From assembly GCA_946184125.1 (NCBI GenBank), contig CAMHEL010000003.1, forward strand, positions 4,489 to 68,488: 64,000 nucleotides of DNA. Direction: 5' to 3'. Each line of letters begins with the position of its first letter. Position 1 is the stretch's first letter. Positions 2,776-43,737 of the stretch are shown here, in pieces. Source of the DNA: an uncultured Prevotellaceae bacterium (GTDB lineage: Bacteria > Bacteroidota > Bacteroidia > Bacteroidales > Bacteroidaceae). The notes beneath the pieces are model-generated. The model saw only the letters and a list, made by a program, of their open reading frames with translations. It was not told the origin of the DNA and ran no database searches. The translations under genes and the position numbers were made by a program.

Positions 2776-3411
2776 ATGACCAAAAACTCCGGATTTCATA
2801 TCGCCGCATGCATCATGGCCTTGTTTGCCATGATGGCATGCAACCCATCCGAGAAAGGGACGAGCCGCATCCACGGCGTGGTGGACAACCCCCAGCTCAA
2901 CGGCAAGCAAATCTTCCTCGTGCCCCTGGAGGACAGTTCGGCAGAAGCCGTCGATTCTGTCTACATCAAGGACGGCAAGTTCGAGTTCGCCACCGACACC
3001 TGCCACATGGCGCAAATCATCATGGACTATCACTTCAGAGACGGCGTGCAGCGGCTGCTCATCGTCACCGAGCCGGGCGACATCGACGTGAGTATAGGTG
3101 CGTCAAGCCATTCGTCGGGCACGCCGGGCAACGACTCCCTCGAGGTGTGGAAGAAAGCCACGGAGAAGCACACCCGCGAGGTGAGCTCCTTCAGACTCGC
3201 CGCCAAGGAGATGGCGAAGACCGACAAGGCGAGGGCCGAACAGCTGCTCGCCAGTGCCGACAGCGTGCACCGCGCCTACCAGCAATACACCCGCCAGATG
3301 GCTGCCTCCATCGGCAAGGGGGCTTTGGCCGACTTCCTCGGAGGCCTCTATCCCACGAGTTACCCCAAGCGCAACGCTGACGGCACCATAGACACCGTCT
3401 ACGTGGAATAA
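2776..3411 (+). CDS. Lipoprotein with a DUF4369-like N-terminal domain and no thioredoxin domain
   Basis: Lipobox FAMMAC. The pattern IHGVVDNPQLNGKQIFLVPL..DSVYIKDGKFEF resembles the N-terminal domain of the TlpA-like protein at 26776..27879. No CxxC motif is present. It ends 11 nt before cassette A. Confidence 0.55.
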   Translation: MTKNSGFHIAACIMALFAMMACNPSEKGTSRIHGVVDNPQLNGKQIFLVPLEDSSAEAVDSVYIKDGKFEFATDTCHMAQIIMDYHFRDGVQRLLIVTEPGDIDVSIGASSHSSGTPGNDSLEVWKKATEKHTREVSSFRLAAKEMAKTDKARAEQLLASADSVHRAYQQYTRQMAASIGKGALADFLGGLYPTSYPKRNADGTIDTVYVE

Positions 3412-3422
3412 TAAGGAGAGCC

Positions 3423-5222
3423 ATGAAGCAGGTGGACAACTACTGGAAATGTGGACTGACACTGGTGCTGGGTGTCGCCGTGGCCTTGTTCTGGTCGATA
3501 CTCTACATGCCCGCCCTCTCTTTCCAAGAGCAATATCAGCTGTTCCTTTACGATGCCGACTACTTCTGCGATACGGTGTCGGTGCCGGGAGGGCTGTCGG
3601 CCTACATCGGCGAGTTCCTCACGCAGTTTTATTTCATCCCCGTCCTGGGGGCCTGCATCATCGCCCTGCTCTACATGCTCCTGCAGGTCATGGTGTGGCA
3701 GCTGGCCAGGCGCAATGGCGCGCAAGACGCCTATTACCCCTTCAGTTTCTTCCCCTCGCTGATGCTATGGGCATACATGGGCGACGAGAACGTGCTGCTG
3801 GCCTTCGTCATCGACCTCCTCGCCGCCGTGACACTCATGCTGCTCTATCATGCGGTGAGCCACGACAAGGCCTTCCCCCAGCGCAAATGGCAGAAGGTGG
3901 CGTTCCTCGTGCTCGCCCTGCCCCTGGGCTACGTGCTGACGGGGCCTTGCGTGCTCATGGTGCCCCTCTATGTCATGCTCTATGAGGCCATCCACGGCCG
4001 CCTGCCCGCAGGGGCCCTGGGCGTGGCGGCGATGCTCTACCTCGTGGCGTTCATCCTGATTGGCGCCCAATGGTGGGCCTATCCCCTCCCCAACCTCTTT
4101 TTCGGTATCGCCGACTACCGCTATCCGGTCTTCTCACCCGGCAACGAACTGCTTCTGGAGCTGTGCACCGCCGTTCTCCCCCTGGTGCTGGGCAAGTTGC
4201 CCGTTACGAAACTGTCCATCCCCGCCGAGGCGCTCATCCTCATCGTGCCCCTCTGCTTCCTTCACCGGTCCTACGACCCCCTGAAATACGAACTCATCGC
4301 CTACGACTTCTACATGAGGACCAGCCAGTGGGACAAGGCCATAGCGAAGGCAGAAGCCAAGCAGCCCACCACCCCCTTCGCCGTGGCGTGCGTCAACCTT
4401 TCGCTGGCCATGAAAGGACAGCTGAGCGACCGTCTCTTCGACTTCTACCAGCACGGGGCGGAGGGGTTGTTCCCCTCGTTCTCGCGCGACATGACCTCGC
4501 CGCTGCCCACCTGCGAGGCGTTCTTCCAACTGGGCATGGTCAACGATGCGGAGCGCTATGCCTTCGAGGCCCAGGAAGCCATCCCCAACCACCGCAAGAG
4601 CGGGCGCCTCACCAAAAGGCTCGCGGAGTGCAACATCATCAACGGGCAGTATGAGGTGGCACGCAAATACCTGCGCCTGCTGGGCAAGACCCTCTTCTAC
4701 CGCAAATGGGCCAAGCAGCAGATGCTGCTCATCGACAACCAACAGGTGGACACCCACCCCACCTACGCCCGGGCAAGGGCTTTCAGGCAGAAGAAGCAGG
4801 ACTTCCTCTTCAGCGACACCGAGATGGACCAGATGCTCGGACTGCTCTTCGTGGAGAACTACGACAACCGCATGGCCTATGAGTACCTCATGTGCTACGA
4901 ACTGCTTCAGGGCGACATGGAGCGGTTCAACGAGTATTACCCCCTGGGCAAGTATGCCAAGTTCGACCACATCCCACTGGCCTACCAGCAAGCACTCGTC
5001 ATGCAGTGGACACAGCAGCACGGCAGCTTCGAGGGGATGCCATGGAGCATCTCACCCGCCACATGCCAGTTGCTCACCCAGTTCGTCGGCATCTATATGA
5101 AAGACCACGACGACCCTGCCCTCAAGTCGCCACCCCTGTCCAACACGTTCTGGGCCTATGCCCTCGTGTCGGGCGAAGTGAAGGAGAAGAAAGAGAAACA
5201 ACCCATGCAAGACATTTACTGA
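3423..5222 (+). CDS. Cassette A1: polytopic membrane protein with a helical C-terminal half (resembles proteins annotated DUF6057; unverified)
   Basis: 599 aa. The first ~290 aa are strongly hydrophobic with multiple TM segments. The invariant block FQEQYQLFL follows TM1. The C-terminal half is soluble and helical (RLAECNIINGQYEVARKYLRLLGKTLFYRKWA). Paralogous to 7027..8682 and 11655..13292. Confidence 0.6.
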   Translation: MKQVDNYWKCGLTLVLGVAVALFWSILYMPALSFQEQYQLFLYDADYFCDTVSVPGGLSAYIGEFLTQFYFIPVLGACIIALLYMLLQVMVWQLARRNGAQDAYYPFSFFPSLMLWAYMGDENVLLAFVIDLLAAVTLMLLYHAVSHDKAFPQRKWQKVAFLVLALPLGYVLTGPCVLMVPLYVMLYEAIHGRLPAGALGVAAMLYLVAFILIGAQWWAYPLPNLFFGIADYRYPVFSPGNELLLELCTAVLPLVLGKLPVTKLSIPAEALILIVPLCFLHRSYDPLKYELIAYDFYMRTSQWDKAIAKAEAKQPTTPFAVACVNLSLAMKGQLSDRLFDFYQHGAEGLFPSFSRDMTSPLPTCEAFFQLGMVNDAERYAFEAQEAIPNHRKSGRLTKRLAECNIINGQYEVARKYLRLLGKTLFYRKWAKQQMLLIDNQQVDTHPTYARARAFRQKKQDFLFSDTEMDQMLGLLFVENYDNRMAYEYLMCYELLQGDMERFNEYYPLGKYAKFDHIPLAYQQALVMQWTQQHGSFEGMPWSISPATCQLLTQFVGIYMKDHDDPALKSPPLSNTFWAYALVSGEVKEKKEKQPMQDIY

Positions 5223-5223
5223 T

Positions 5224-6708
5224 ATGGCCTACCGCTGGAATACCACTTTCTGGAACCTATGGGCGATGGTGTGCCTTCTCGCCTGTGCCGCCTGCACCGC
5301 CACGCCCGACCATCCCACCGCCGTCGATGAGTTGCCGCCCATCTATCCCGACTACACCGGGGTGACCATCCCACAGGGGCTGGCACCACTCAACTTCTCG
5401 CTGGCCAACGGCGAGGAGGGGCGCATCGATGTCGTGGTGAAAGGCGCGAAGGGCGGAGAACTGCATGCCAACGGCACCTTCGCCGACTTCGACGTGGACG
5501 ACTGGCACGCCCTGACCCTTCAGAACAAGGGGAGCAAGCTGACATTCACCGTGTGCATCTGCCGCGACGGGCAGTGGCGCCGCTACCGCGACTTCGACGT
5601 GTGGGTGAGCGACGACGACCTCGAGGAATGGGGACTGACCTACCGCCGCATCCCCCCCGGGTATGAGGTGTATGGCAAGATGGGGCTCTACGAGAGAGAC
5701 CTGTCGAACTTCGACGAGCAGCCCATCATCGAGAACACCGCCATCCCCGGCGCGTGCCTCAACTGCCATGTGTCCAACCGCACCGACCCCACGCAGTTCA
5801 CCTTCCACGTCAGGGGCGACCATGGCGCCACCGTCATCCAGCAGCAGGGCGTGATGGAGGTGCTGCAGTCGCGCAACGACAGCATCGGCGGTTCGCTGGT
5901 CTACCCCTACTGGCATCCCACGGGAAAATACGTCGCCTACTCCACCAACCGCACCAACCAGTCGTTCCATGCCGTGGCGGGCGAGCGCATCGAGGTGTTC
6001 GACCATGCCTCCGACGTGCTGGTCTATTGTCCTGCCACACACGAAATACTCAGCGACTCGGCGCTCGCCACCACCGACCATTTCGAGAACTACCCCGTCT
6101 TCTCGCCCGACGGCAAGACACTCTACTACTGCGCGGCAGAGGCGCGGGAAATCCCCGAGGGCTACAAGGACATCCGCTACAACCTCTGCAAGGTGGCCTT
6201 CGACCCGGAGAAAGGGGCGATAGCAGGCATGCCCGACACCCTCTTCAACGCACGGGCGATGGGCAAGAGCGCCAACCACCCAAGGCCTTCCTACGACGGG
6301 CGCTTCCTGCTCTTCACCATGAGCGACTATGGCTGCTTCCCCATCTGGCACAAGGAGGCCGACCAATGGCTGCTCGACCTGCAGACAGGCGAGGCACGGG
6401 CTCTCGACGAGGTGAACAGCACCGACACCGACAGCTACCACAACTGGAGCACCAACTCGAGATGGATGGTCTTCACCTCACGCCGCAGCAATGGCTACTA
6501 CACCCAGCTGTTCCTCACCCATGTCGACAAGAACGGGCGCATGACAAAGCCCTTCCTCCTGCCGCAGCGCAACCCATGGGAATACTACGACGAGACGCTC
6601 TACTCCTTCAACACGCCCGACTTCACCAAGACCCCCGTGGCACTCGACCGCCGCAAGGCCGCCCAGGCCATCTCTGCTGAGAGCCGCGTTGCCACCAAAG
6701 TGAAGTAG
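5224..6708 (+). CDS. Cassette A2: lipoprotein with a CxNCH motif and a TolB/PD40-like beta-propeller
   Basis: Lipobox LLACAAC. Shared blocks PIYPDYTGVTIPQGLAPLNF and LTYRRIPPGYE. CLNCH at 5755..5769. PD40-like blades FSPDGKTLYY, PSYDGRFLLFTMSDYGCFP and WSTNSRWMVFTSRR. The start is 1 nt after the A1 stop. Confidence 0.6.
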   Translation: MAYRWNTTFWNLWAMVCLLACAACTATPDHPTAVDELPPIYPDYTGVTIPQGLAPLNFSLANGEEGRIDVVVKGAKGGELHANGTFADFDVDDWHALTLQNKGSKLTFTVCICRDGQWRRYRDFDVWVSDDDLEEWGLTYRRIPPGYEVYGKMGLYERDLSNFDEQPIIENTAIPGACLNCHVSNRTDPTQFTFHVRGDHGATVIQQQGVMEVLQSRNDSIGGSLVYPYWHPTGKYVAYSTNRTNQSFHAVAGERIEVFDHASDVLVYCPATHEILSDSALATTDHFENYPVFSPDGKTLYYCAAEAREIPEGYKDIRYNLCKVAFDPEKGAIAGMPDTLFNARAMGKSANHPRPSYDGRFLLFTMSDYGCFPIWHKEADQWLLDLQTGEARALDEVNSTDTDSYHNWSTNSRWMVFTSRRSNGYYTQLFLTHVDKNGRMTKPFLLPQRNPWEYYDETLYSFNTPDFTKTPVALDRRKAAQAISAESRVATKVK

Positions 6709-6717
6709 GCGCTAGGC

Positions 6718-6859
6718 TTTAGACCCTAGACTTTAGACCCTAGACTTTAGACCCTAGACTTTAGACCCTAGACTTTAGACATCTGCTCTGTGCTCATATC
6801 ATTTATCAGCCCTAGACTTTAGACTTTAGACCCTAGACTTTAGACCATAGACTTTAGAC
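6718..6859. repeat. Heptamer tandem array (TTTAGAC/CCTAGAC) in two blocks of 9 and 7 units, split by a 30-bp unique spacer
   Basis: Read directly from the sequence. 6718..6780 holds 9 alternating TTTAGAC/CCTAGAC units. 6781..6810 is unique sequence. 6811..6859 holds 7 units, including one CATAGAC variant. Confidence 0.95.
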
Positions 6860-6930
6860 GCTTGGCTTGAGCCACCGTGGGGCGCGCCGTTAGGCCGCCC
6901 GCCATGAGTTTCGTGAACCAACGAACTAAT

Positions 6931-7025
6931 GTCTAAACTCCTAAACTACTAAACTCCTAAACTCCCACAAAAACTCCTAAACTCCTAAACTCAAAAAAAC
7001 TCCTAAACTCCCACAAAAAAACTCC
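6931..7025. repeat. Octamer array (CTCCTAAA / CTAAACTC) interrupted by CCCACAAAAA(A) elements, abutting the start codon of cassette B
   Basis: Read directly from the sequence. It begins with GTCTAAA, the reverse complement of the upstream TTTAGAC unit. Then come about 8 CTCCTAAA-type units and a roughly 47-bp higher-order duplication (AAACTCCTAAACTCCCACAAAAA, twice). It ends 1 nt before the ATG at 7027. Confidence 0.9.
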
Positions 7026-7026
7026 A

Positions 7027-8682
7027 ATGAATACCCATTTGCCTTTGCGATACGGGAGACTGGCAGCGACGGTGCTGCTCGGTGCCGCCATCATGCTCTT
7101 CTGGTGGCTGGCCTTCCCCCATGCCCTCTCCTATCAAGAGCAATACCAGCTGTTTCTCTGGACGCCCGACTACCTGCTTGATGCCCTGTCCATCCCCGGC
7201 GGCTTCTCAGCATGGCTGGGCGAGATGGTCGTGCAGTTCTATGCCATCCCATGGCTGGGCGCCCTGCTGCTGGGCATCTTGTTCGTCGCGCTGCAATGTG
7301 CCGTGGCGGCAGCGATGCCTCACGGTCAAAGCCGCAAATGGTTTCTGATGAGTTTAGTGCCACCAGTCATGGTGCTGGGACTGATGGGCGATGAGAGCAC
7401 ACTCCTCGCCTACCCCGTCGGTCTGACCCTCACCCTGGCGCTGTATGCCGCCATGAAGGGCAGGCCAAAGCAGGAAGCCACGGCGCCGCCATCCATGCTC
7501 CGGCTGTTCGCCGAACTCCCCATGCTTGCCGTGGCCTACTGGGCCGTGGGACCGCTGATATGGCTGTATGTCGTCCTGGGCGTGCAGGAGAAGGGCTGGC
7601 GATGCTTGGCACTGGCAGCGATGCTGGCTCTGGTGCAGTGGCTGGCCTACACGTTCCTGCTGCCCGAATGGACACTGTATGACATGGCTACCGGACGTGT
7701 GTATTACCGCATCCCCTTGATGTTCCCCACACTGATGTGGGTCATCCCACTCGTCGTGGCAGGCATCGTGCTGCTGTCGCGCATGCGCCATGCCTTGTGG
7801 ATGGTGCCCGTTGAGACCGGCATCGTGGCTGCGGCGGCCTTCCTCGCCGTGGGACAGGGATACGACAAGGATAAATACGAGCTGATACGTCAGGACTATC
7901 TCGTACGCAACGAGCGATGGGACGACATCATCAGTCGGGCGAAAGAATACCAGGTGACAACCGCTTTCAGTTCGGTATGTGTCAATCTTGCCCTCTCGCA
8001 GAAGCGCCAGCTCGCCGACCACATGTTCGACTACTTCCAAAGCGGACCCGACGCGCTCCTCATGCCGATGCGCCGCGACCTCACCTCGATGCTGCCCACT
8101 GCAGAGGTGTTCTGGCGACTTGGCATGGTCAACTCGGCGCAGAGATACATGTTCGACACGCAGGAATCCATCCTCAACGGGAAGAAAAGCGGACGGTGCA
8201 CCAAACGCATCGTGGAGTGCATGATGGTGAACGGGCACTACAAGCCGGCAAGGAAGCATATCGACATGCTCAAAGCCACCCTCTTCTACCGACAATGGGC
8301 AAAGGACGCGGAGGAATGCCTCGGCGACGAGGCCAAAATCGACGCACACCCAGTGTGGGGGAAGATGCGACGGCTCAGATACAAGGAGGATTTCCTGTAC
8401 AACTATCCTGAAATGGACAAGATGCTGGGACTGCTCTTTGTCAACAACCCGGAAAACAAGATGGCTCTCGACTACATGATTGGCCAGCAGCTGCTCAATG
8501 GCGACATCGAGGGCTTCTCGCAGTCGATGCCGCTGGCCCAGCAATATGGCGGATACTACCAGATGCCTCTCGTCTACCAGGACGTGGCCAACTGCATCCG
8601 CACCAACGGCCAGCCCGGCCGCTCGCAGTATATGAACTACATGAACAGAATGAGAAGAGAAAACCATGAGAATGAGAAATAG
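7027..8682 (+). CDS. Cassette B1: polytopic membrane protein, paralogue of A1
   Basis: 551 aa. Blocks SYQEQYQLFL, GDESTLLA and RIVECMMVNGHYKPARKHIDMLKATLFYRQWA align with A1 and C1. Confidence 0.6.
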   Translation: MNTHLPLRYGRLAATVLLGAAIMLFWWLAFPHALSYQEQYQLFLWTPDYLLDALSIPGGFSAWLGEMVVQFYAIPWLGALLLGILFVALQCAVAAAMPHGQSRKWFLMSLVPPVMVLGLMGDESTLLAYPVGLTLTLALYAAMKGRPKQEATAPPSMLRLFAELPMLAVAYWAVGPLIWLYVVLGVQEKGWRCLALAAMLALVQWLAYTFLLPEWTLYDMATGRVYYRIPLMFPTLMWVIPLVVAGIVLLSRMRHALWMVPVETGIVAAAAFLAVGQGYDKDKYELIRQDYLVRNERWDDIISRAKEYQVTTAFSSVCVNLALSQKRQLADHMFDYFQSGPDALLMPMRRDLTSMLPTAEVFWRLGMVNSAQRYMFDTQESILNGKKSGRCTKRIVECMMVNGHYKPARKHIDMLKATLFYRQWAKDAEECLGDEAKIDAHPVWGKMRRLRYKEDFLYNYPEMDKMLGLLFVNNPENKMALDYMIGQQLLNGDIEGFSQSMPLAQQYGGYYQMPLVYQDVANCIRTNGQPGRSQYMNYMNRMRRENHENEK

Positions 8683-10132
8683 CCTGATACTCCTGATGCT
8701 CATCCTGCTCACTGCCTGTGGGAAAAAGGTGAAAGACCCGGCACCGGCAGGGAAGCAGCCTGATATCTTCCCCGACTATGTGGGGGTGACCATCCCCGCA
8801 GGCATCGCTCCGCTCAACTTCACCATGGCCGATGGCAGCGACGACTGGATGGACGTCACCGTCAAGGGAGCCAAGGGAGGTGAACTGCACGCCGCCGGCC
8901 GCCATGCCGACTTCGACATCGGGGAGTGGAGACGGCTCACCGAGGCCAATGCCGGCGCCGACCTCACCATAGCGGTGTGCGTGCTGCACGATGGCGCATG
9001 GACGAGCTACGAGCCGTTCACCATCCATGTGAGCGAATTCCCGCTCGACGACTACGGCCTCACCTACCGCCGCATCCCGCCAGGCTATGAGGTGGGAGGC
9101 GACATCGGCATCTACCAGCGCGACCTGCACTCGTTCGACGAGGAGCCCATACTCACCGAGACCACTGTGCCGGGCAGGTGCATGAACTGCCACACCGCCA
9201 ACCGCACCGACCCCAGCCGGCTCACCATGCAGATAAGGGGCGAGAACGGCGGCACACTCATTCAGCAAGACGGTGTGCAGCGATGGATAAACACACGCAC
9301 CGACAGCACCAAGGCAGCAGGAAGCTATGCATACTGGCATCCCTCGGGCGACTATTGCGCCTACGCACTCAATGCCGTACACCAGTCGTTCCATGTGGGC
9401 TCACGGCAGCGCATAGAGGTCTATCACAGCTTTGGCGACGTGATGGTGCTCGACACGCGGAGCGACCAAATGCTCCTCACCCCGCTGCTGATGACCGACG
9501 ACCTGGAAATCTTCCCGGCGTTCTCTCACTCGGGCGACACGCTCTATTACAGTACCTCGAAGCCCTGCAACGTGCCTGCCGAGTATGAGAAGGTGAAGTG
9601 CAGCCTCTGCGCCATCGCGTTCGATGCCGCAAGCGGGCGCTATGGCGACACCGTCGACACGCTGCTCAACGCCAGGCTCACCGACAAGAGCTACACGCTG
9701 GCACGGCCCTCCTACGACGGGCGGTGGCTGATGTACACCGTCGCCGACTGCGGCAACTTCCCCGTCTGCCGGTCTGAGGCCGACCTGTGGCTGATGGACC
9801 TCACCACCCGGGAGACACGGCCGCTGACGGAGGTCAACAGCCACGACACCGAGAGCTGGCACAGCTGGAGCAGCAACAGCCATTGGTTCGTGTTCAGTTC
9901 AAAAAGGGCCGACGGGATGTACACCCAGCTCTTCCTCGCCTGCATCGACGACAGCGGGCGGGTGAGCAAACCTTTCCTCCTCCCCCAGCGCGACCCCAAG
10001 AGATACTATGACAGGATGATGGACGCCTACAACGTGCCCGACTTCACCCGCACACGAGTGCTCTTCGATGCCCGCGAGGCACAACGCCAAGTCTTCGCCA
10101 AAGACAAAAAACAGGTGAAGATAAAAGATTAG
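8666..10132 (+). CDS. Cassette B2: CxNCH beta-propeller lipoprotein, paralogue of A2
   Basis: Lipobox LLTAC. Blocks DIFPDYVGVTIPAGIAPLNF and LTYRRIPPGYE. CMNCH at 9179..9193. PD40-like blades PSYDGRWLMYTVADCGNFP and WSSNSHWFVFSSKR. Overlaps B1 by 17 nt. Confidence 0.6.
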   Translation: MRMRNSLILLMLILLTACGKKVKDPAPAGKQPDIFPDYVGVTIPAGIAPLNFTMADGSDDWMDVTVKGAKGGELHAAGRHADFDIGEWRRLTEANAGADLTIAVCVLHDGAWTSYEPFTIHVSEFPLDDYGLTYRRIPPGYEVGGDIGIYQRDLHSFDEEPILTETTVPGRCMNCHTANRTDPSRLTMQIRGENGGTLIQQDGVQRWINTRTDSTKAAGSYAYWHPSGDYCAYALNAVHQSFHVGSRQRIEVYHSFGDVMVLDTRSDQMLLTPLLMTDDLEIFPAFSHSGDTLYYSTSKPCNVPAEYEKVKCSLCAIAFDAASGRYGDTVDTLLNARLTDKSYTLARPSYDGRWLMYTVADCGNFPVCRSEADLWLMDLTTRETRPLTEVNSHDTESWHSWSSNSHWFVFSSKRADGMYTQLFLACIDDSGRVSKPFLLPQRDPKRYYDRMMDAYNVPDFTRTRVLFDAREAQRQVFAKDKKQVKIKD

Positions 10133-10142
10133 CCCTCCCGGT

Positions 10143-10166
10143 CGGTATGCCGATATCGGCATACCG
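10143..10166. terminator. Perfect 24-bp palindrome; likely bidirectional terminator between convergent cassettes B and C
   Basis: CGGTATGCCGAT|ATCGGCATACCG, followed by AAAAA on the + strand. It sits between the stops at 10132 (+) and 10189 (-). Confidence 0.6.
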
Positions 10167-10188
10167 AAAAACACCGCAAAGAAAAGCC

Positions 10189-11658
10189 TTACTGGAAAGC
10201 GATGGCCTTCTGGCCCATCGCCTGCCTCACGTCGTCGGCTGAGAATGGCAGCCGTCCGCGGCCCAGTTCGGGGACGTTGAACGACTTGAGGTTGAAGTCG
10301 TAGAACTGTGGGTCGCGCTGGGGAAGCACGAAAGGTTTGCTGGCGCGTCCCTGGCGGTCGATGTAGCAGAAATAGGGCTTGCCGTAGAGATGGTCGTCGC
10401 GCTTGGAAGCGAAGACAAGCCAGCGGCTGTTGCTGCTCCAACTGTGGTAGGTGTCGCTCATGTCGCTGTTGACGACGGCCATATCGTCGGTTTCGCCGGT
10501 CTCGAGACGGAGCATCGCCAAGTCACTTTCCTGGTGCCATATCGGAAACGTCCCGTAGTCGGTGACGGTGTAGACAAGCCATTTCCCATCGGGGCTGACA
10601 CGCGGATGCGACACCGACCGCCCATGGCGGTTGGCAGCATAGAGCGTATCGACGCTGTCGCCGAACGCCCCCTTTCCAGCATCGAAGCCGATGCGGCAAA
10701 GGCTGTAGCGCATCTGCTGCAGCTCGCCGGGCAGTTTCACGCTGGGCGCAGAGCAGAAATACACATACTTGCCATCGGGCGAGAAAGCGGGGAAGGTCTC
10801 AAAGGCCGTGCTGTCGCTCAGCAGGGCGCTGCGGATGATGCGGTGTCGCTCCAAATCGGCCACATACACATCGGAAGACTTGTCGAACACCTCGAGGCGC
10901 TTCTCGGGGCGGGCATGGAAGGCCGGTATGATGACATTGGATGAAAAGGCGATGTGGCGGCCGTCGGGGCTGAACCCGTAATAGACACTCCCCGACACCA
11001 TGCCATCGGCTTTGATGTCGAGCTTGCTCAGCTGCCCTTTGCGGTTGAGGATGGCACCGCCGCCCTCACCCCTGACATAGAGCATCGACAGGTCGGACGA
11101 CTGGCTGCCATAGACATGGCAGTTCATGCAGCGGTTGCCCACAAGGCCGTAATCGCAGATGGCCCGCTCGTTGAAATCCTCCACACAGCGCTCATGCAGC
11201 GACAGGTTCTGGTATATCTCATAGTCGGGCTCTATCAGCCGGTAAGTGAGGTAAGGGTCCACCTCGTCGGTGGTCACCTGCCAGGAGAAGGACTTGAACT
11301 GCCGCCATTGGCCTTTCTCGAGCGCCGACACCGTCACGTCCACTTTGCCATCGCCCACCTGCTGGAGGAAGTCCTTCCACTGGCCGACGGGTATGCACAC
11401 CTCATTGCCCCGGGCGTTGACCCGGAGCGTCGCCGCCCCGCTTACGGCCCTCATCTCCACCGCCTCGAAGTCGCCGCGCAGAAGGAAGTTGAGCGGGGCG
11501 ATGTTGCAGGGGATGGTGACATCGGCATAGTCAGGATACATGGGTGGCAGCTCGCCGACCAACTGCGGATTGGAGGGCGTGGGGGTGCATGCAGACAAGC
11601 AAATAATGGCGAGAGCCACAAGCAGATGCTTGACGAGGGGGATGGCAGACTCACTCAT
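10189..11658 (-). CDS. Cassette C2: CxNCH beta-propeller lipoprotein, paralogue of A2 and B2
   Basis: Lipobox CLSAC. Blocks PPMYPDYADVTIPCNIAPLNF and LTYRLIEPDYE. CMNCH encoded at 11116..11130 (-). PD40-like blades FSPDGKYVYF, VSPDGKWLVYTVTDYGTFP and WSSNSRWLVFASKR. A 4-nt ATGA overlap joins it to C1. Confidence 0.6.
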   Translation of the reverse strand: MSESAIPLVKHLLVALAIICLSACTPTPSNPQLVGELPPMYPDYADVTIPCNIAPLNFLLRGDFEAVEMRAVSGAATLRVNARGNEVCIPVGQWKDFLQQVGDGKVDVTVSALEKGQWRQFKSFSWQVTTDEVDPYLTYRLIEPDYEIYQNLSLHERCVEDFNERAICDYGLVGNRCMNCHVYGSQSSDLSMLYVRGEGGGAILNRKGQLSKLDIKADGMVSGSVYYGFSPDGRHIAFSSNVIIPAFHARPEKRLEVFDKSSDVYVADLERHRIIRSALLSDSTAFETFPAFSPDGKYVYFCSAPSVKLPGELQQMRYSLCRIGFDAGKGAFGDSVDTLYAANRHGRSVSHPRVSPDGKWLVYTVTDYGTFPIWHQESDLAMLRLETGETDDMAVVNSDMSDTYHSWSSNSRWLVFASKRDDHLYGKPYFCYIDRQGRASKPFVLPQRDPQFYDFNLKSFNVPELGRGRLPFSADDVRQAMGQKAIAFQ

Positions 11659-13292
11659 GGTTGTGGTGCTTTTGCGGTGTCAAAATAATACCAATAGGTG
11701 TCACTGAACGAGGGGTCGCCACGATGCCGGTTGTAGTCGCTGAAACGCCGCAACTGTTCCTGGTCGTGAATGTATTTTTTCCATTCTTCCTCAGGAGCTT
11801 GCGTTCCAGCGAGGTATATCATCAGCGCCTGTTGGTAAAGCGGTTTCAGGCGCTCGCGGCCCAGGTCAAAACAGTATCGGTCGTAGTCGCGCTTGAAATT
11901 GGCGATATCCTTGAGCAGGAGGGTGCTGCAGAGGATGTAGTCGAGCGCCACCATGTTGTCGGGGTTGGTGTCGAGCAGTTCCATCATCACCATATGCAGG
12001 TTGTCGGTGAGGCGTATGGTGTCGGCACGGTTGACGAACATCTGCTTCTCGAGCAAATACCTGAAGGCTTTGGGCTCCTTTTGTGTCATCCGCTGTGCCC
12101 AGTCGGCATACACCCATGTCTTTTGCAGCAGCCGGAGGTATTTGTTGGCCGCCAAGGTGTCGCCGCTCACGATATTGCACTCCGCCAACCGCTTGACCAT
12201 TCGCACATTACGGTTCTGCGGCGAGAACACATTGGTCATCATGGCGGCGCGCTCGGTGAGCGTCATGTCGCCCAGCGCCCAGTAGAGCTCGTTCATATTG
12301 ATGATGGTGAGCCGCGAACTCTCGGGGCCTATCTTGTAAAACGTGCCCAGCTGGTTGGGAATGAAGCGCAGCAGATGGTCGGGCAACTCTCCCTGCTGGG
12401 CCTTGACGAGGTTGTAGAAGAAGAGCATCTCGTCGGTGGGGGCGGCATCATTCTCCACCATTGCCTCCACTTTGCGCCAGTTGCCGAAATGGTATTCGTT
12501 GTCGGCTGCCAGGTCTTTCTCCAGGATGAAGTCGGGCAGCACCCATTTCCCCATCCCCGGATAGGACAGCGCCTGGGGGGGAGTCAGACAGTAGAGGCGG
12601 GGCGAGAACAAGCCCGCCAATGCCATGATGAGGACTGGTGCGAGTGCCCACAGCCAGCTCCACCGCCATGGCCGTTTCCCTCGCTTGCCGATGGTTTCCA
12701 GCACGAGAAGCGCCTGCAGCACCCACACGCCATAGCCCCACATCCAATAGGTGAGGACGGCTGCCACGACGATGACCAGGGCATTGGTCCATCTGCCCTC
12801 TTTGCAGAGCCAACCGACGATGAGATAGGATGCCAAGCCTCCCCACAGCGCCAGCACCGACGACAGGCGGTAGTCGGCACGGAAACAGAAGACGGCCTCG
12901 AGGGTCATCACCAGGATGGCGGCAAGAAAAGCCCAGTGGATGCCTAAACCACAACGCTGCAACGCACGACGGGCGGCATCGCCCACAGCCAGCAATGCCA
13001 CGGTGAGGATGGCCGGACCGGCATAGAGATAGTAGTAGAACTGGGTGAGGAAATCGCCCGCCAGGCAGGCTGCCCATGCCGGCTTGCTGAAATAGGAGTA
13101 GATGTAGCCGTCGTCGAGAAGAAACAGCTGGTTCTGCTCCTGATAGAAGAAATGGCAGGGGTAGTAAAACAGGAAGAACACCAGGCATGCCGAGGCCCAC
13201 AGCGCGATGGCCACAAGCCATGGCACGGGGACGGGCAGCCATCTGCCCAGCATACCGATAGTGCGGGGGGTGTTTTCTTCAGACTTTGACAT
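11655..13292 (-). CDS. Cassette C1: polytopic membrane protein, paralogue of A1 and B1
   Basis: Blocks FYQEQNQLFL and RLAECNIVSGDTLAANKYLRLLQKTWVYADWA. The ORF extends to 13367. A minus-strand TACCTTTG box (13301..13308) lies inside that extension, so the start is more likely MSKSEEN (13292) or MLGRW (13253). Confidence 0.58.
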   Translation of the reverse strand: MSKSEENTPRTIGMLGRWLPVPVPWLVAIALWASACLVFFLFYYPCHFFYQEQNQLFLLDDGYIYSYFSKPAWAACLAGDFLTQFYYYLYAGPAILTVALLAVGDAARRALQRCGLGIHWAFLAAILVMTLEAVFCFRADYRLSSVLALWGGLASYLIVGWLCKEGRWTNALVIVVAAVLTYWMWGYGVWVLQALLVLETIGKRGKRPWRWSWLWALAPVLIMALAGLFSPRLYCLTPPQALSYPGMGKWVLPDFILEKDLAADNEYHFGNWRKVEAMVENDAAPTDEMLFFYNLVKAQQGELPDHLLRFIPNQLGTFYKIGPESSRLTIINMNELYWALGDMTLTERAAMMTNVFSPQNRNVRMVKRLAECNIVSGDTLAANKYLRLLQKTWVYADWAQRMTQKEPKAFRYLLEKQMFVNRADTIRLTDNLHMVMMELLDTNPDNMVALDYILCSTLLLKDIANFKRDYDRYCFDLGRERLKPLYQQALMIYLAGTQAPEEEWKKYIHDQEQLRRFSDYNRHRGDPSFSDTYWYYFDTAKAPQP

Positions 13293-13499
13293 ACAGGCTG
13301 CAAAGGTAACGCATTTAGGACGAAACAGCACCATTTTTGGAGAAAAAAGTAAGGGTGCCGCCACCAAGACATTTTCTTGCGGTATGTAAACACACCATTG
13401 TTAGGCATGGGAAACAAGTAAAAAAAGAGTCATTTTCTCATTTTTGGAAAAGTATCAATAATGGTCAAAATAGTATTGTATATATAACATTTTTTACTA

Positions 13500-13696: not shown

Positions 13697-16600
13697 ATGA
13701 ATTTGAATTTCAGAAAAACAGTGCTGCTCATGGGTGCTTGCATTGGTTTGGGATTTGTTTCCCCAGCTCATGCGACCTCATCGACCGTAACTGCACCTGC
13801 AGTTCAGCAGACGAAAAAAGTCAGTGGTGTCGTCAGAGATGCTGATGGACCGGTCATCGGAGCCACCATCATGGAGAAAGGCACCAACAACGGAACGGTT
13901 ACCGACTTCGACGGTAACTTCTCTCTCGACGTGCAGCCAGGCGCTGTGCTGGTCATCACCTACATCGGTTACACCACACAGGAAATCCCCGTGGGCAACC
14001 AGTCAAACTTCGCCATCAACCTCTCGGAAGACTCCGACATGCTCGATGAAGTCGTGGTCGTGGGTTACGGTGTGCAGAAGAAGAAACTCGTCACCGGTGC
14101 CACTCTCGAAGTGAAGGGTGAGAACATCACCAAGATGAACACCACACAGGTGCTCGGCGCCCTGCAGAGCCAGGCTCCCGGCGTCAACATCCAGGCCAAC
14201 TCCGGTCAGCCGGGCGACGGATTCAAAATCAACATCCGTGGTGCAGGTACCAACAGCAGCACCAATCCTATCTACGTCATCGACGGTGTGGCTGGAGGTG
14301 ACATCAACGCCCTCAACCCTGCCGACATCGAGCGCATCGACGTGCTGAAGGATGCCGCATCGGCTGCCATCTACGGTTCGTCGGCTGCCAATGGTGTCAT
14401 CCTCATCACCACCAAGCAGGGTAAGGAAGGAAAGGTAGAAGTGAGCTACGATGGAAACATCGGATGGCAGAATGTCTACAAAATGCCTGAGACCCTCAAC
14501 GCCAAGCAGTATATGCAAGTCATGGACCTGGTGAGCCACAACTCTGTAGGCGGACTCTACGACTGGTCGAGGTATATCGATGCCGACCTGCTCAAAGCCT
14601 ATAAAGACGGCACCAACAAGGGTACGGACTGGGTGGACTCATTCCGCAACAAGAACTCCATCGTCACCAACCACTCGCTCAACCTCGCCGGAGGTAACGA
14701 AGTGTCGAAATTCTCGACGGGTGTGGGCTACCAATACCAGGACGGTGTGTTCGGAGGACCGGTGAAGTCCGACTTCCGCCGCTTCACCTTCCGTCTCAAC
14801 TCTGAGCATGTCATCTACAAAGTGGGCGACAGGGATGTCGTCAAGATTGGCGAGAACCTGTATTTCCAGCATCGCCAGAGCCAGGGTATCCAGATTGGCA
14901 ACCAGTATGCCAACGACCTTTCAAATATGCTGCGCGCCAACCCGTGCGTACCTATTTATAATAAAAACGGCGACTATTTCATGTGGGAAGACATCGTGTC
15001 GTCGGGTACTGACGGATGGTTCAAATACAACAACTTCACCAGCAACCCCATCGCTGCCGCTGTCTACAACCAAGCCGGCAACAACAAGAGCAAGAGCTTC
15101 AACCTCAGTGCCGTGGCTTATGTCGAGGTGCAGCCCATCAAGAACCTGACCTACCGCGGACAGGTGTCCTACAGGCAGTGGTCGAGCAGCTGGTGGTGCT
15201 ATCTCCCCACCTTCCGCATCCACGACAACTCGGGTGGTTTCCGCAATACCGACCAGACCATCGACAACCTCTCACTGGGATGGAACTGGAACCTCGTCAA
15301 CACGCTGAACTACCGCTTCGACCTGGGCAACAACCACTTCGACATCTTGGGCGGTATGGAGTACTCCAAGTCGCGTCCTCACTATGGTGAATCGGTCAAC
15401 GCCACCGCTTCGGGCAACATCTTCGGCGATGCCACACATGCCTACATGCACAACATGACTGGCCGCACATCGGCTGTCGTCGACGGCTATCCCAGTGGAT
15501 ATGACGCTAAACTCTCGTACTTCGGACGTCTGAACTACGACTTCAACGAGACCTATCTGTTCACCGCCATCATCCGTGCCGACGGTTCCTCGAAGTTCGC
15601 TCCCGGAAACCAGTGGGGCTACTTCCCCTCAGTATCAGCAGGTTGGGTCATCTCAAATGAGAAATTCATGGAGGGCACCAAGAGCTGGCTGTCGTTCCTG
15701 AAACTGCGTGCCGGCTGGGGACAGAACGGTAACGACAATATCGGTTCCGTGCTGTGGAAGTCGAACTTCGACTTCGGCGACTACGGACAGTATTCCTTCG
15801 GCAACACCAAAGATGCCTACACTCAGGGTGCTTATCCTGCCAACATTGAGAATCCTGACCTCAAGTGGGAGACCTCGCAGCAGACCAACGTGGGTCTCGA
15901 CGCACGCTTCCTTGGCGGACGACTCACCACCACGCTGGAATGGTACAACAAAGAGACTAAAGACCTGCTCCTCTGGGTGCCCCTGTGGGGTATCGTCGGA
16001 CAGAACGGCTACACCGCCAATGCCGGCACCGTGAAGAACACCGGTATCGAGGCTGCCGTGGGATGGCAGGACAACATCGGCGACTTCAGCTATGGCATCA
16101 ATGTCAACTTCGCCAAGAACAAGAACGAGGTGACCGAGGTGAAAAACGCCAATCACTTCGTGGAAGGCGGCAACGACCTCATTGCCCAAAACACAGGCAT
16201 CATGGCACGCATGGAGGAAGGACACCCCATCGGCTACTTCTATGGCTACAAGACCGAGGGTGTCATCCAGAACGAAAGCGACCTGCAAGCCTATCTCAGC
16301 AAGAACTGCGGCGGCAAGGCTGCCAACTCCCTCCAAAGCACCTCCATTCAGCCGGGCGACCTGAAGTTCGTCGACACCAATGGCGATGGCATCATCACTC
16401 CCGATGACAAGACCGAAATAGGAAGCCCACACCCCGACTTCACCCTCGGCGCGTCGCTCAACCTGGGCTACAAAGGCTTCGACTTGTCGGTCACCACATT
16501 CGGCTCATTCGGCAACGAGGTGGTGCGCTCATGGCGCAAGAACACCGACTCGCAGTTTGAGAACTACACCACCGAGGTGTATAACTACTGGCATGGCGAG

Positions 16601-17440
16601 GGAACATCCAACAAATACCCCATGCTGAAACCAGGCAACATCGGTGCCAACTGGCAGCAGGTGTCCGACATCTACGTGGAGGACGCTTCCTACTTCCGCA
16701 TCCAGAACGTCACACTGGGCTACGACTTCGCAAAACTGCTCAAGAGCACCAGCCCGTTCAGCCAGCTCCGCGTCTACTTCGCCGCACAGAACCTCCTCAC
16801 CTTCACCAACTACAAAGGTATGGATCCTGAAAACGGTATTGCCATCGGCAATGAGTCTTGGGTCACCGGCGTCGATGTCGGCAACTATCCTCAGCCTCGC
16901 ACCTATATGGTGGGCGTCAACCTCAAGTTCAAGGACAAGAGAGAGAAGAAAGCTGCCGCTCCCATCGTGCAGACCAAGGTGGAGTATGTGACCGACAACA
17001 GCGAAATCGACCGCCTCAATGGCGTCGTCAACCAGCTGCGTGCCGAGAACGACAAACTGAAGAACCAGAAGCCGACGAACACCACCACCGTCATCACCGA
17101 CAAGGAAGTGGTCACCTATCCTTACTTCGTCAACTTCGAAAAGAGCAAGACCGAGGTCGTCAACCGCGAGCGCGTCAACCTGAGCACCATCGCAAAGATG
17201 ATCAAGGAAAACCCAGGCAAGAAATACAGCATCATGGGCTACGCCGACAAGGCCACCGGAACAGCCGAGCGCAACAAGTGGCTGGCCGAGAACCGCGCCA
17301 AGAATGTCTACGACGTACTCATCAAGGAGTATGGCGTGCCTGCAAGCAGCCTCATCCTCGACTCGAAGGGCGGCGTGGAGAACCTGTACTTCAATGATCC
17401 TCAGATGAGCCGCTCAGTATTAATCACAGAGGTGAAATAA
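13697..17440 (+). CDS. SusC/RagA-family TonB-dependent outer-membrane transporter with a C-terminal OmpA-like extension
   Basis: 1247 aa. It has a signal peptide and a CarboxypepD_reg-like N-terminus (VSGVVRDADGPVIGATIMEKGT..TDFDGNFSL). A plug region and a long barrel follow. The barrel ends in the canonical terminal strand VGVNLKF at nt 16930, but the frame stays open for 169 more residues. Confidence 0.85.
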   Translation: MNLNFRKTVLLMGACIGLGFVSPAHATSSTVTAPAVQQTKKVSGVVRDADGPVIGATIMEKGTNNGTVTDFDGNFSLDVQPGAVLVITYIGYTTQEIPVGNQSNFAINLSEDSDMLDEVVVVGYGVQKKKLVTGATLEVKGENITKMNTTQVLGALQSQAPGVNIQANSGQPGDGFKINIRGAGTNSSTNPIYVIDGVAGGDINALNPADIERIDVLKDAASAAIYGSSAANGVILITTKQGKEGKVEVSYDGNIGWQNVYKMPETLNAKQYMQVMDLVSHNSVGGLYDWSRYIDADLLKAYKDGTNKGTDWVDSFRNKNSIVTNHSLNLAGGNEVSKFSTGVGYQYQDGVFGGPVKSDFRRFTFRLNSEHVIYKVGDRDVVKIGENLYFQHRQSQGIQIGNQYANDLSNMLRANPCVPIYNKNGDYFMWEDIVSSGTDGWFKYNNFTSNPIAAAVYNQAGNNKSKSFNLSAVAYVEVQPIKNLTYRGQVSYRQWSSSWWCYLPTFRIHDNSGGFRNTDQTIDNLSLGWNWNLVNTLNYRFDLGNNHFDILGGMEYSKSRPHYGESVNATASGNIFGDATHAYMHNMTGRTSAVVDGYPSGYDAKLSYFGRLNYDFNETYLFTAIIRADGSSKFAPGNQWGYFPSVSAGWVISNEKFMEGTKSWLSFLKLRAGWGQNGNDNIGSVLWKSNFDFGDYGQYSFGNTKDAYTQGAYPANIENPDLKWETSQQTNVGLDARFLGGRLTTTLEWYNKETKDLLLWVPLWGIVGQNGYTANAGTVKNTGIEAAVGWQDNIGDFSYGINVNFAKNKNEVTEVKNANHFVEGGNDLIAQNTGIMARMEEGHPIGYFYGYKTEGVIQNESDLQAYLSKNCGGKAANSLQSTSIQPGDLKFVDTNGDGIITPDDKTEIGSPHPDFTLGASLNLGYKGFDLSVTTFGSFGNEVVRSWRKNTDSQFENYTTEVYNYWHGEGTSNKYPMLKPGNIGANWQQVSDIYVEDASYFRIQNVTLGYDFAKLLKSTSPFSQLRVYFAAQNLLTFTNYKGMDPENGIAIGNESWVTGVDVGNYPQPRTYMVGVNLKFKDKREKKAAAPIVQTKVEYVTDNSEIDRLNGVVNQLRAENDKLKNQKPTNTTTVITDKEVVTYPYFVNFEKSKTEVVNRERVNLSTIAKMIKENPGKKYSIMGYADKATGTAERNKWLAENRAKNVYDVLIKEYGVPASSLILDSKGGVENLYFNDPQMSRSVLITEVK
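16931..17437 (+). other. Domain within the SusC-like CDS: K/E-rich coiled-coil linker plus an OmpA_C-like peptidoglycan-binding domain
   Basis: The linker reads KDKREKKAAAP...IDRLNGVVNQLRAENDKLKNQK. The next stretch, FVNFEKSKTEV..LSTIAKMIKENPGKKYSIMGYADKATGTAERNKWLAENRAKNVYDVLIKEYGV..., matches the OmpA_C pattern (F.F...S.L.....L..IA......I.GH/YxD..G....N..L...RA..V...L). Confidence 0.7.
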
Positions 17441-17485: not shown

Positions 17486-19246
17486 ATGAAAAAAATAGCA
17501 TATTTTTTAAGCGCAGCACTCTTCGCAGGCACGCTCGCTTCGTGCGACCTTGACTCGATGAGCATGACTTCGAAGGACACATCCAACTTCCCTGTCAATG
17601 CCGAGGATGCCGCACAGGCTCTGGCCGGTATCTATCAGAACCTCAATGCTGTGAATGCCAACCCACAGGAGACCTGGCATTACTATGCCATGCTGGCCAG
17701 CGACGACCAATTTGGCGGCGGCGGCACCAACGACAAGCTGATGCAGGCCATGGACCTCATACTCAACTACAACACCGACATGACCGGCGATTTCTGGCAG
17801 CAGCGCTACCAGGGCATCAACCGTGCCAACACCCTCCTCGAAGCACTCGAGAAAGTGGAGTTCGACCCCGTGGAGAAAGCCCAGACCAAGGGCGAGGCAC
17901 TCTTCATGAGAGCATTCTTCTACTATGAGCTGGCCTCGATGTACGGAAACGTGCCACTCATCGTCACAGCCAAGAAACCCGAAGAGGTAACACCTCCAAC
18001 AGCAGCCCAACTCTGGGGACAAATCCTCCAAGACCTGCGCGACGCCAGCGACATCATGCCTAAGGTGCGCAAAACCGACGGACACGTCGACAAATATTGC
18101 GCAGAGGCCCTGCTCGGACGCTGCTGGCTCTTCTACACCGGCTTCTATTGCAATGGAGAAAAGATTGCCGACCTCGTGAGCACCAACTACAGCCCGCTCT
18201 CATCGGTACAGCTGCCCGACGGAACCACACTGACCAAAGACCAGGTCATCGCCTACATCGACGACTGCGTCAACAATTCTGGCTACTCGCTGGTGCCCGA
18301 CTTCCGCAACCTCTGGGCTTACACCAACCGCTGCACCGTGGAAGACTATGACTACACCAAGGGACAAGGCTTGAAATGGGTGGAGGACGACAACGGCATC
18401 AACCCCGAGTCGATGTTCGCAGTGAAGTTCAACAAAATGGCTTCATGGTCGACCACCATCGGCTATGCCAACGGCTACTCCCTGCACTTCGGCGTGCGTG
18501 GCGGTCAGGCTTATGCCAACACCTTCCCCTTCGGACAAGGATGGGGCGCTGGACCTGTGGCCACCAATCTCGTGAAAGACTGGAAAAACGCTGAGCCAAG
18601 AGACAAGCGCTTCGATGCCACCATTCTTAATTTCAACGACCTGCCCGGCTACACCAAAGGTGGATGGGAGGACTTCGTACAGGAGACCGACTATTATGGC
18701 AAGAAACTCTCGCCCATCACTTCCAAGAAGGAAGACGGCGACTACTGGTGCACCTTCGAGAACCAGATGTATCCCGGCAACTGGGAAATCTCCGGCGAGG
18801 AGAACTTCCAGCTGGGCAACATCCACGACATGGTGCTCATCCGCTTCGCCGAGGTGCTCCTCATGCAGAGCGAGCTGAAGGGCGACACCGGCGGCATGAA
18901 CAAACTGCGCGCACGTGCCGGACTCGACCCCGTGCCCAACTACAGCCTCGAGGCGCTGCAGAGAGAGCGCCGATGGGAACTGGCCTTCGAGGGACTGCGC
19001 TTCAACGACATCCGACGCTGGCACATCGCTGCCGCTGCATTGGACAAACAGCTCGACCAGGAATGCTACTACTGCGGGCGTCCGTCAACCAACTTCGCCC
19101 ACAACGGTGGCTACTCCACACGCTACAAAGCAACTGCTGGCTTCCAGAAATTCCCCGAAACAGAGATTATCCTCTCAGAGGGTGCATTAAAGCAGAACGA
19201 AGGATGGACTACTTCCGACAGCGAATACATCGACTGGAACAACTAA
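17486..19246 (+). CDS. SusD/RagB-family nutrient-binding outer-membrane lipoprotein
   Basis: Lipobox LASC. It lies immediately downstream of the SusC-like gene. The C-terminal block ERRWELAFEGLRFNDIRRW is typical of SusD-like proteins. Confidence 0.88.
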   Translation: MKKIAYFLSAALFAGTLASCDLDSMSMTSKDTSNFPVNAEDAAQALAGIYQNLNAVNANPQETWHYYAMLASDDQFGGGGTNDKLMQAMDLILNYNTDMTGDFWQQRYQGINRANTLLEALEKVEFDPVEKAQTKGEALFMRAFFYYELASMYGNVPLIVTAKKPEEVTPPTAAQLWGQILQDLRDASDIMPKVRKTDGHVDKYCAEALLGRCWLFYTGFYCNGEKIADLVSTNYSPLSSVQLPDGTTLTKDQVIAYIDDCVNNSGYSLVPDFRNLWAYTNRCTVEDYDYTKGQGLKWVEDDNGINPESMFAVKFNKMASWSTTIGYANGYSLHFGVRGGQAYANTFPFGQGWGAGPVATNLVKDWKNAEPRDKRFDATILNFNDLPGYTKGGWEDFVQETDYYGKKLSPITSKKEDGDYWCTFENQMYPGNWEISGEENFQLGNIHDMVLIRFAEVLLMQSELKGDTGGMNKLRARAGLDPVPNYSLEALQRERRWELAFEGLRFNDIRRWHIAAAALDKQLDQECYYCGRPSTNFAHNGGYSTRYKATAGFQKFPETEIILSEGALKQNEGWTTSDSEYIDWNN

Positions 19247-35282: not shown

Positions 35283-35354
35283 CAAGACCAGACAAGACAA
35301 ACGAGACAGAAGGGCACAGCCCATAAGACGAAGAAAAGAAAGAACAACCAAGGA

Positions 35355-35909: not shown

Positions 35910-35922
35910 GCCTACGCACATC

Positions 35923-38076: not shown

Positions 38077-38102
38077 AATACGCTATATAAACAGAAAACA
38101 TC

Positions 38103-39569: not shown

Positions 39570-39616
39570 GCCTACCAGTCAACCACTAAGATTAGAATCA
39601 CAAAAACCCAACAACA

Positions 39617-40888: not shown

Positions 40889-41024
40889 GCGGTCTGAACC
40901 ACCGGGTTGTGAAACCCCACGCCCCAAAAAGGCTTTCCCTATAAGGGACAATTGATTGGAATACACTTACGACAACACACATTAGCAAGAATAATATTAT
41001 TAATTGATTGATTGACAATAGAAT

Positions 41025-42362: not shown

Positions 42363-42381
42363 CAAGCACAAACACCACAAC

Positions 42382-43720: not shown

Positions 43721-43737
43721 CAGTTTAAAACAAGAAT

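Follow-up and report, generated by a model that had tools for sequence, protein, structure and literature searches.

DUF6057 membrane proteins and CxNCH beta-propeller lipoproteins are encoded as conserved gene pairs in polysaccharide utilisation loci of Bacteroidales

Introduction

The described systems closest to the genes considered here are Bacteroides loci for beta-mannan use, of the B. fragilis BF0771-0774 and B. cellulosilyticus PUL32 types. The B. fragilis BF0771-0774 beta-mannan pathway consists of genes for glycoside hydrolase families GH26 and GH130, a symporter and an epimerase. PMC5877837 refers to BF0771 and BF0772 as characterised GH26 and GH130 enzymes. Here we analyse three pairs of genes, each encoding a polytopic membrane protein of family DUF6057 (M: A1, B1 and C1) and a beta-propeller lipoprotein (P: A2, B2 and C2), in a stretch of 64,000 nucleotides from an uncultured Prevotellaceae bacterium (the window; assembly GCA_946184125.1, contig CAMHEL010000003.1, positions 4,489 to 68,488). 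Loci of related M-P pairs have the gene set of these Bacteroides loci, with SusC, SusD, a lipoprotein, GH26, GH130, an MFS_2 symporter, an epimerase, CE7 and a GH5 mannanase; in the window, SusC, SusD and the lipoprotein are encoded but no glycoside hydrolase gene adjoins them. The gene table described for PUL32 has no DUF6057, TolB or PD40 entry, and the mannan-locus papers that we searched make no mention of the M-P genes.

Other described proteins resemble one partner or the other. DUF6057 (PF19529), of which the M proteins are full-length members, is a catalogued family with no assigned function, and our literature search for it found no paper. This agrees with an earlier reading of the window made without database searches (the sequence-only reading), which knew of no characterised function for the pairing; what the present analysis adds to the family is its obligatory partner P and its SusC/SusD and beta-mannan surroundings. 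Like TolB, P has a PD40-type beta-propeller, putatively in the periplasm, but it is lipid-anchored, has an immunoglobulin-like (Ig-like) N-terminal domain, carries a C-x-N-C-H motif and scores 21-39 bits against the TolB model TIGR02800, whose cut-off is 343. Like the hybrid two-component sensors of polysaccharide utilisation loci, M-P is a locus-encoded inner-membrane system with a putatively periplasmic propeller, but M has short cytoplasmic loops only and no kinase or DNA-binding output. TMTC and TMEM260 are O-mannosyltransferases that combine a polytopic domain with a tetratricopeptide repeat (TPR)-like domain; M resembles TMTC1-4, TMEM260 and ArnT/PMT in its polytopic N-terminal half, in having an acidic loop first on the periplasmic side and in its helical-repeat domain, but shows no sequence, profile or Foldseek similarity to them, and its context is catabolic. 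To our knowledge, neither the obligatory partnership of a DUF6057 protein with a CxNCH-propeller lipoprotein nor its embedding in utilisation loci has been described.

Results

M and P genes occur as matched pairs

The six open reading frames (ORFs) that the sequence-only reading had arranged as three paralogous pairs were reproduced exactly (Table 1), as were the junctions it gave: a 1-nt gap between A1 and A2 (TGA-T-ATG), a B2 start lying 17 nt inside B1, and an ATGA shared by the TGA of C1 and the ATG of C2. An alternative start for C1, a TTG, lies upstream at 13367. By BLASTP, the paralogy within the window is well above chance (E 1e-14 to 5e-167). Among the M proteins, A1 and B1 are 38% identical (E 1e-113), A1 and C1 27% (E 9e-20), and B1 and C1 23% (E 1e-14); among the P proteins, the values are 49% for A2 and B2 (E 5e-167), 39% for A2 and C2 (E 4e-128) and 35% for B2 and C2 (E 3e-109).

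The pairing is kept far beyond the window. We scanned one genome per species, which gave 322 confirmed relatives, and retained the best 80 loci. A pair was scored when a P gene lay at most 600 nt downstream of an M gene on the same strand, counting only M genes with enough downstream DNA. By this measure a P gene follows 140 of 146 M genes, and an M gene precedes 139 of 143 P genes. The match extends to subtype, as judged by the window paralogue that each gene matches best: all 140 pairs are concordant (72 of A1 with A2, 25 of B1 with B2 and 43 of C1 with C2), with no mixed pair. The adjacency of M and P thus holds in other genomes, and the earlier description of a dedicated two-protein envelope module stands. 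M genes number one in 28 loci, two in 33 and three in 19. Identities between M proteins correlate with those between the corresponding P proteins, with r of 0.73 overall and of 0.64, 0.75 and 0.89 within A, B and C, respectively, values for which partner assignment is partly imprecise.

Because the A, B and C subtypes occur across families with matched partners, the triplication reflects ancient co-divergence, in which A, B and C are old lineages that diverged together with their partners. This co-divergence argues for a specific relationship between M and P, and against recent local amplification, which the retention of the three subtypes with matched partners across families rules out. Of the earlier proposal that the cassette was amplified and diverged three times at one locus, the three diverged copies are real; the subtypes themselves are old and widespread lineages. 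The carriers include Prevotella, Segatella, Hallella, Xylanibacter, Bacteroides, Phocaeicola, Parabacteroides and Tannerella, and M and P each comprise thousands of clusters at 90% identity. A whole-library profile search with the transmembrane (TM) domain of M (E<=0.001) puts the DUF6057 family at no fewer than 2,648 representatives at 50% clustering; the 150 matches listed all have E<=2e-41 and are mostly 450-615 residues long, which fits DUF6057 relatives, and there is no remote family link among the matches listed.

The pairs lie in SusC/SusD loci and, in many relatives, among beta-mannan genes

In the window, the pairs form part of a SusC/SusD locus (Table 1), a context that the sequence-only reading had missed. 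Elsewhere the conserved order on one strand is SusC, SusD, lipoprotein, DUF4369 protein and then one or more M-P pairs. SusC, SusD or the lipoprotein lies within the flank in 49 of the 80 loci, and in 43 an M gene is immediately preceded by a DUF4369 homologue; our literature search for DUF4369 found nothing relevant.

The genes of plant beta-mannan use are interleaved with the pairs in Bacteroides, Phocaeicola, Parabacteroides and some Prevotella. In six Bacteroides/Parabacteroides loci (L060, L069, L070, L072, L074 and L079), GH26, GH130 and MFS_2 genes follow the pairs directly on the same strand, and five of the six go on to a gene of the GlcNAc_2-epimerase family; in L068 the downstream genes are GH3, GH26 and GH130. 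In three Prevotella loci (L019, at 7911-10478, L035 and L066), M and P are separated by a GH2 beta-mannosidase gene of the same orientation; in the truncated locus L027 such a gene directly follows M. In L014 and L028 a GH5 gene separates one pair from another. L083 reads AraC, CE7, GH5_mannosidase, SusC, SusD, lipoprotein, M, P, GH26, GH130, MFS, epimerase and GDSL esterase, and L084 and L085 are comparable. The Phocaeicola locus L088 comprises GH5_mannosidase, SusC, SusD, lipoprotein, M, P, GH26, GH130, MFS, epimerase and GH2, and in L087 the genes for SusC, SusD, lipoprotein, M, P and GH5_mannosidase have GH26, CE7 and a melibiase-family alpha-galactosidase as neighbours. In L089, M-P begins 11 nt after a hybrid two-component sensor gene, in a locus with GH2, GH43 and GH20/84. 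Altogether, genes for carbohydrate-active enzymes (CAZymes; GH26, GH130, GH5, GH2, CE7 and alpha-galactosidase) are co-located in 14 of the 80 loci, and in 5 of 8 contigs with M or P homologues that were looked up separately from that set. M-P belongs to polysaccharide utilisation loci, the beta-mannan type being the most frequent.

Table 1. The M-P pairs and the SusC/SusD locus in the window
Feature	Coordinates	Strand	Description
DUF4369 lipoprotein	2776..3411	+	first gene of + operon, 11 nt before A1; PF14289 E 7e-9
A1	3423..5222	+	DUF6057 inner-membrane protein; PF19529 E 5e-171
A2	5224..6708	+	lipoprotein with Ig-like domain and PD40 beta-propeller; CLNCH at residues 178-182; PD40 E 1e-11
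B1	7027..8682	+	DUF6057 paralogue; PF19529 E 2e-133
B2	8666..10132	+	propeller lipoprotein paralogue; CMNCH
C2	10189..11658	-	propeller lipoprotein paralogue; CMNCH; three PD40 repeats detected, PD40 E 2e-22
C1	11655..13292	-	DUF6057, most divergent M paralogue; PF19529 E 2e-127
SusC/RagA-type TonB-dependent transporter	13697..17440	+	TIGR04056 893 bits; OmpA E 3e-13
SusD-family lipoprotein	17486..19246	+	PF14322 and PF07980
511-aa lipoprotein	19276..20811	+	no Pfam match; homologues between SusD and M-P in 46 loci

M is a polytopic protein with a predicted periplasmic helical-repeat domain

All three M proteins match DUF6057, a family that had been suggested for checking, with 571, 447 and 427 bits for A1, B1 and C1 against a cut-off of 29.8. 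No NCBIfam model matches them, and Pfam searches at E<=10 with the separate halves of M and with the N-terminal region of P returned DUF6057 only. Nothing meaningful came from PDB sequence searches with A1, C2 and both family alignments. The AlphaFold2 model of A1, built on 50 homologues, has a predicted local distance difference test score (pLDDT) of 84.5 and a predicted template modelling score (pTM) of 0.80. It shows nine long hydrophobic TM helices (residues ~10-283), followed by an all-helical repeat domain of about 300 residues (286-581). Charges over 50 M homologues alternate, with the N-terminus and loops 2, 4, 6 and 8 net positive and loops 1 and 3 net negative. This fits a topology with the N-terminus in the cytoplasm and the C-terminus outside, which would put the helical-repeat domain in the periplasm, together with E36, Q37, Q39, E64, Q68, E122 and N123, a conserved belt of polar residues at the predicted periplasmic face of the membrane.

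Conservation in M (147 sequences) is highest in the putative periplasmic domain and loops, and the invariant or nearly invariant residues (N325, E365, R395, R399, K415, W429, N482 and Y488) lie mostly in that domain; no His, Cys or Met is conserved. Of the motifs proposed earlier, KR(L/I)(A/V)EC...G in the C-terminal half is present, and the YQEQ(Y/N)QLFL block is found with the amendment that A1 reads FQEQ, giving (F/Y)QEQ(Y/N)QLFL. The proposed conserved Asp after TM1 (YDADY/TPDY/DDGY) is not kept by the family, which instead conserves E36, Q37, Q39 and Y47 at this place.

Whole-chain Foldseek comparison of the A1 model with 350,542 PDB chains gave no match at E<=0.001. TPR proteins rank first (APC3 and the TPR domain of OGT; E ~0.02, TM-scores <0.3), and the best 50 are mostly TPR or other helical-repeat proteins, with a few membrane transporters such as LeuT and ClC-3 at noise level (probability ~0.1). 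Comparison of the M halves with a SusD alignment (hhalign) showed no relation.

We considered two further roles for M. A dedicated cytochrome c synthase of the CcsA, CcmF or CcmC type is ruled out, as M has no conserved His, no WWD motif and no Pfam match to such synthases. A general O-oligosaccharyltransferase is unlikely because M is multi-copy, lineage-restricted and linked to P; our literature search found no description of a Bacteroidota O-oligosaccharyltransferase.

P is a propeller lipoprotein with an invariant CxNCH motif

The motifs described earlier for P (P.(Y/F)PDY..VTIP..IAPLNF, LTYR.I.P.YE and C.NCH) and the lipoboxes are all present, and its assignment as a PD40 propeller lipoprotein is upheld. 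Pfam detects PD40 repeats only; the precomputed matches of P homologues to PF26549 and PF26550 are faint Tricorn propeller models. In the AlphaFold2 model of A2 (pLDDT 86.1, pTM 0.86), an N-terminal Ig-like beta-sandwich (~residues 30-130) precedes the beta-propeller, and Foldseek finds the propellers of S9 peptidases, tricorn, oligogalacturonate lyase and others (E 1e-9 to 1e-6), a similarity at the level of fold only.

All three window proteins have a lipoprotein signal with a lipobox, and so do 109 of 140 homologues as translated automatically. Bacteroidetes lipoproteins destined for the cell surface carry an acidic export signal after the lipid-bearing Cys. The corresponding residues in the window proteins, CTATPD, CGKKVK and CTPTPS, are unlike that signal, and for this reason we place P, provisionally, in the periplasm as a lipoprotein.

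Each of 140 P homologues from other genomes has exactly one CxNCH motif. Over 143 P sequences C178, N180, C181 and H182 are invariant, as are R141, E148, R158, R197, E257, W408 and W414, and H406 is present in 142. In the A2 model the motif falls in a predicted propeller beta-strand, with a local dip in confidence (pLDDT 65 at residues 171-180). Cytochrome c had been listed earlier only as a family to check, and the significance of CxNCH as a possible haem c site was missed. That check was negative: Pfam and NCBIfam have no cytochrome match for P although CxNCH is invariant, and no cytochrome domain or fold is seen in the A2 model or by Foldseek. P possibly carries a covalent haem; alternatively, the motif could bind a metal or combine a disulphide with a catalytic His.

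P also contains a D-T-[IL] sequence (A2 residues 338-340) in 139 of 143 homologues, and D-S-I (A2 residues 219-221) in 98 of 143. D-T-[IL] is the general O-glycosylation sequon of Bacteroidetes and is served by a general system.

Discussion

A plausible reading of these observations, which we put forward tentatively, is that M-P is an accessory complex of the periplasm and inner membrane that handles oligosaccharides imported by SusC/SusD. Each M would bind its own P through the helical-repeat domain, giving a 1:1 complex on the periplasmic side of the inner membrane. This complex would bind or chemically process the imported oligosaccharides before their hydrolysis or cytoplasmic uptake, and the A, B and C subtypes may serve different oligosaccharide variants. 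Several observations weigh against it. Simple sugar binding offers no obvious role for the invariant CxNCH, the A1 model has no catalytic fold recognisable by Foldseek against the PDB, and the TM domain of M aligned with itself (hhalign) shows no transporter-like internal repeats. One locus (L075, 6064-9442) has M without P, in the order SusC, SusD, M, a 510-aa ORF and GH3, the 510-aa ORF resembling a glycoside hydrolase by eye only, with no scan behind it. Some C-type pairs adjoin arginine-biosynthesis genes and a cytoplasmic FkbO/RidA-like gene instead of SusC/SusD, and part of the M-P synteny may be historical. Moreover, no glycoside hydrolase adjoins the array in the window, where the nearest CAZyme gene encodes a GH95 protein at 59062-61566, or in most Prevotellaceae loci, which confines the documented link with beta-mannan to part of the family.

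The CxNCH motif is the starting point for a different explanation, in which P is a mono-haem c-type cytochrome and M-P a periplasmic redox enzyme with M, itself without cofactor, as a quinone-facing anchor; H182 would be the proximal haem ligand and the 99%-conserved H406 possibly the distal one. A His directly after the second Cys of CXXCH is the signature of haem c. Here the motif is retained in all homologues, across paralogues that are only 35-49% identical, on a protein that is Sec-exported as a lipoprotein, and the A2 model is least confident around it. Cytochromes cd1 (NirS and NirN) are likewise exported proteins with CXXCH and a beta-propeller, and ActE is likewise lipid-anchored; however, P has no separate cytochrome c domain, its motif lies inside the propeller, its haem is putative, and its PDB match to NirN (6rtd) is not significant (E 0.6). 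The conserved Glu and Gln residues of M at the periplasmic membrane face would suit the anchor role, and one source labels a P homologue 'cytochrome c-binding protein'. The order is capable of haem c maturation: nrfAH is reported from B. thetaiotaomicron, P. gingivalis and P. intermedia, all of which reduce nitrite, and in B. thetaiotaomicron ccsA/ccsB lie beside it (PMC10434189). Set against this are the absence of a cytochrome domain or fold, the lack of a ccs gene in the 64-kb window, an M protein with neither conserved His, Cys or Met nor a WWD motif, the other roles open to CxNCH, and the fact that no redox step is known in beta-mannan use. On balance we regard the haem explanation as unlikely. 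Its most specific form, in which P would be a lipid-anchored haem propeller with bis-His ligation by H406, sitting on M as a quinone-linked redox enzyme for imported oligosaccharides of the beta-mannan type, we rate as quite improbable; if true, it would give anaerobic glycan catabolism a redox step that has no described counterpart.

M-P might instead be an inner-membrane importer that depends on a binding protein, in which case P would catch oligosaccharide in the periplasm and M would carry it across. M is indeed the sole inner-membrane protein encoded beside SusC/SusD in many Prevotellaceae loci, the window included, and the presence of one to three diverged pairs in a locus would be in keeping with differing substrate specificities; yet Bacteroides M-P loci also encode an MFS_2 symporter, few conserved polar residues of M lie inside the membrane, conservation being centred on the periplasmic domain, and with no internal repeat and only noise-level structural matches to transporters (LeuT, ClC) an importer seems decidedly unlikely. 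The sequence-only reading had likened M to GT-C-type transferases, which would use a lipid-linked donor and a periplasmic active site in the acidic first loop to glycosylate or lipid-modify either P or a molecule presented by it. After TM1 comes a net-acidic periplasmic loop of 45 residues with short helices and a nearly invariant E36 (144 of 147 homologues), the architecture recalls the O-mannosyltransferases named above, and P bears a widespread sequon. The acidic loop alone is not diagnostic of GT-C, however, and the sequon is no pointer to M because the general O-glycosylation system serves it. The isolated TM half of M has no Pfam match at E<=10 to PMT, PMT_2, STT3 or ArnT-like families, NCBIfam has none, and PDB sequence and family-profile searches gave only noise; GT-C enzymes are absent from the 50 best Foldseek matches of the whole-chain A1 model, and the Asp on which the resemblance was partly built is not conserved. 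A biosynthetic transferase would also be out of place in catabolic loci, and M can occur without P (L075). We find a GT-C role for M very improbable, and none of these comparisons supports the resemblance proposed earlier. Finally, M-P might be a tether of the Tol-Pal kind, with P bound to an OmpA/Pal-like domain on SusC and held by the TPR-like domain of M, linking inner membrane, peptidoglycan and outer membrane. The Tol-Pal gene cluster includes a TPR protein, CpoB, P has weak matches to TolB models, and the window SusC ends in an extra OmpA/Pal-like peptidoglycan-binding domain (residues ~1147-1236). This fusion is shared only with the closest relative (L001), the other 20 orthologues with a recovered C-terminal part ending at residues 1078-1108, which undermines the tether; the TolB scores fall far below the cut-off and the N-terminal domain of P is Ig-like rather than that of TolB, making a tether hardly credible.

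The accessory oligosaccharide-handling complex that we favour would bear on glycan use in dominant fibre degraders of the human gut and rumen, since Prevotella/Segatella, Bacteroides, Phocaeicola and Parabacteroides are among the carriers. Current models of beta-mannan use in Bacteroidales lack a component at the stage between inner membrane and periplasm, and they are incomplete because two conserved, coupled and uncharacterised genes sit inside those operons. Carriers whose locus runs straight into GH26-GH130 offer a concrete genetic handle, and whether P carries haem is a cheap biochemical question.

Neighbouring genes and other features of the window

The 511-aa lipoprotein encoded after SusD contains a recent internal duplication of 172 aa (80% identity), and other genomes have single-domain versions of 273-278 aa at this position, which in SusC/SusD loci is commonly that of a surface glycan-binding lipoprotein. 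Peptide searches for the duplicated domain in the supplement of the CBM112 paper were negative. A second DUF4369 protein in the window (26776-27879, minus strand) is fused to a thioredoxin/AhpC-TSA domain, which the one beside A1 does not have.

The cytoplasmic FkbO/RidA-like gene mentioned above encodes a protein of 340-380 aa ('c5') with no evident signal peptide, an FkbO_Hyg5-like N-terminal domain and a RidA/L-PSP C-terminal domain. It is found in 23 of the 80 loci, and also in L085 (8253-9374) and L088 (13223-14353), often beside arginine-biosynthesis genes; several copies precede DUF4369, M and P, and others adjoin M-P. It may be only a neighbour.

The spacer of 318 nt between A2 and B1 (6712..7019) consists almost entirely of short tandem repeats, with 7/14-nt units of the TAGACTT type, among them a 14-nt unit, CTAGACTTTAGACC, in 4.9 copies, and a second array at 6813-6859; positions 6933-7019 are filled by CTAAACTC-type units of 8-46 nt. 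Promoter and terminator scans gave nothing above shuffled expectation.

Further along, an 838-aa ORF at 29250-31766 (minus strand), which has no Pfam or NCBIfam match, adjoins a gene for a YARHG-domain protein (27966-29216, minus strand). A cluster of cell-division and cell-wall genes occupies 34338-49940 (mraW, PBP, murE, mraY, murD, ftsW, murG, murC, ftsA and ftsZ), and because of it we take the window to be chromosomal. The last 2 kb (62001-64000) have a GC fraction of 0.44, against 0.50-0.62 elsewhere.

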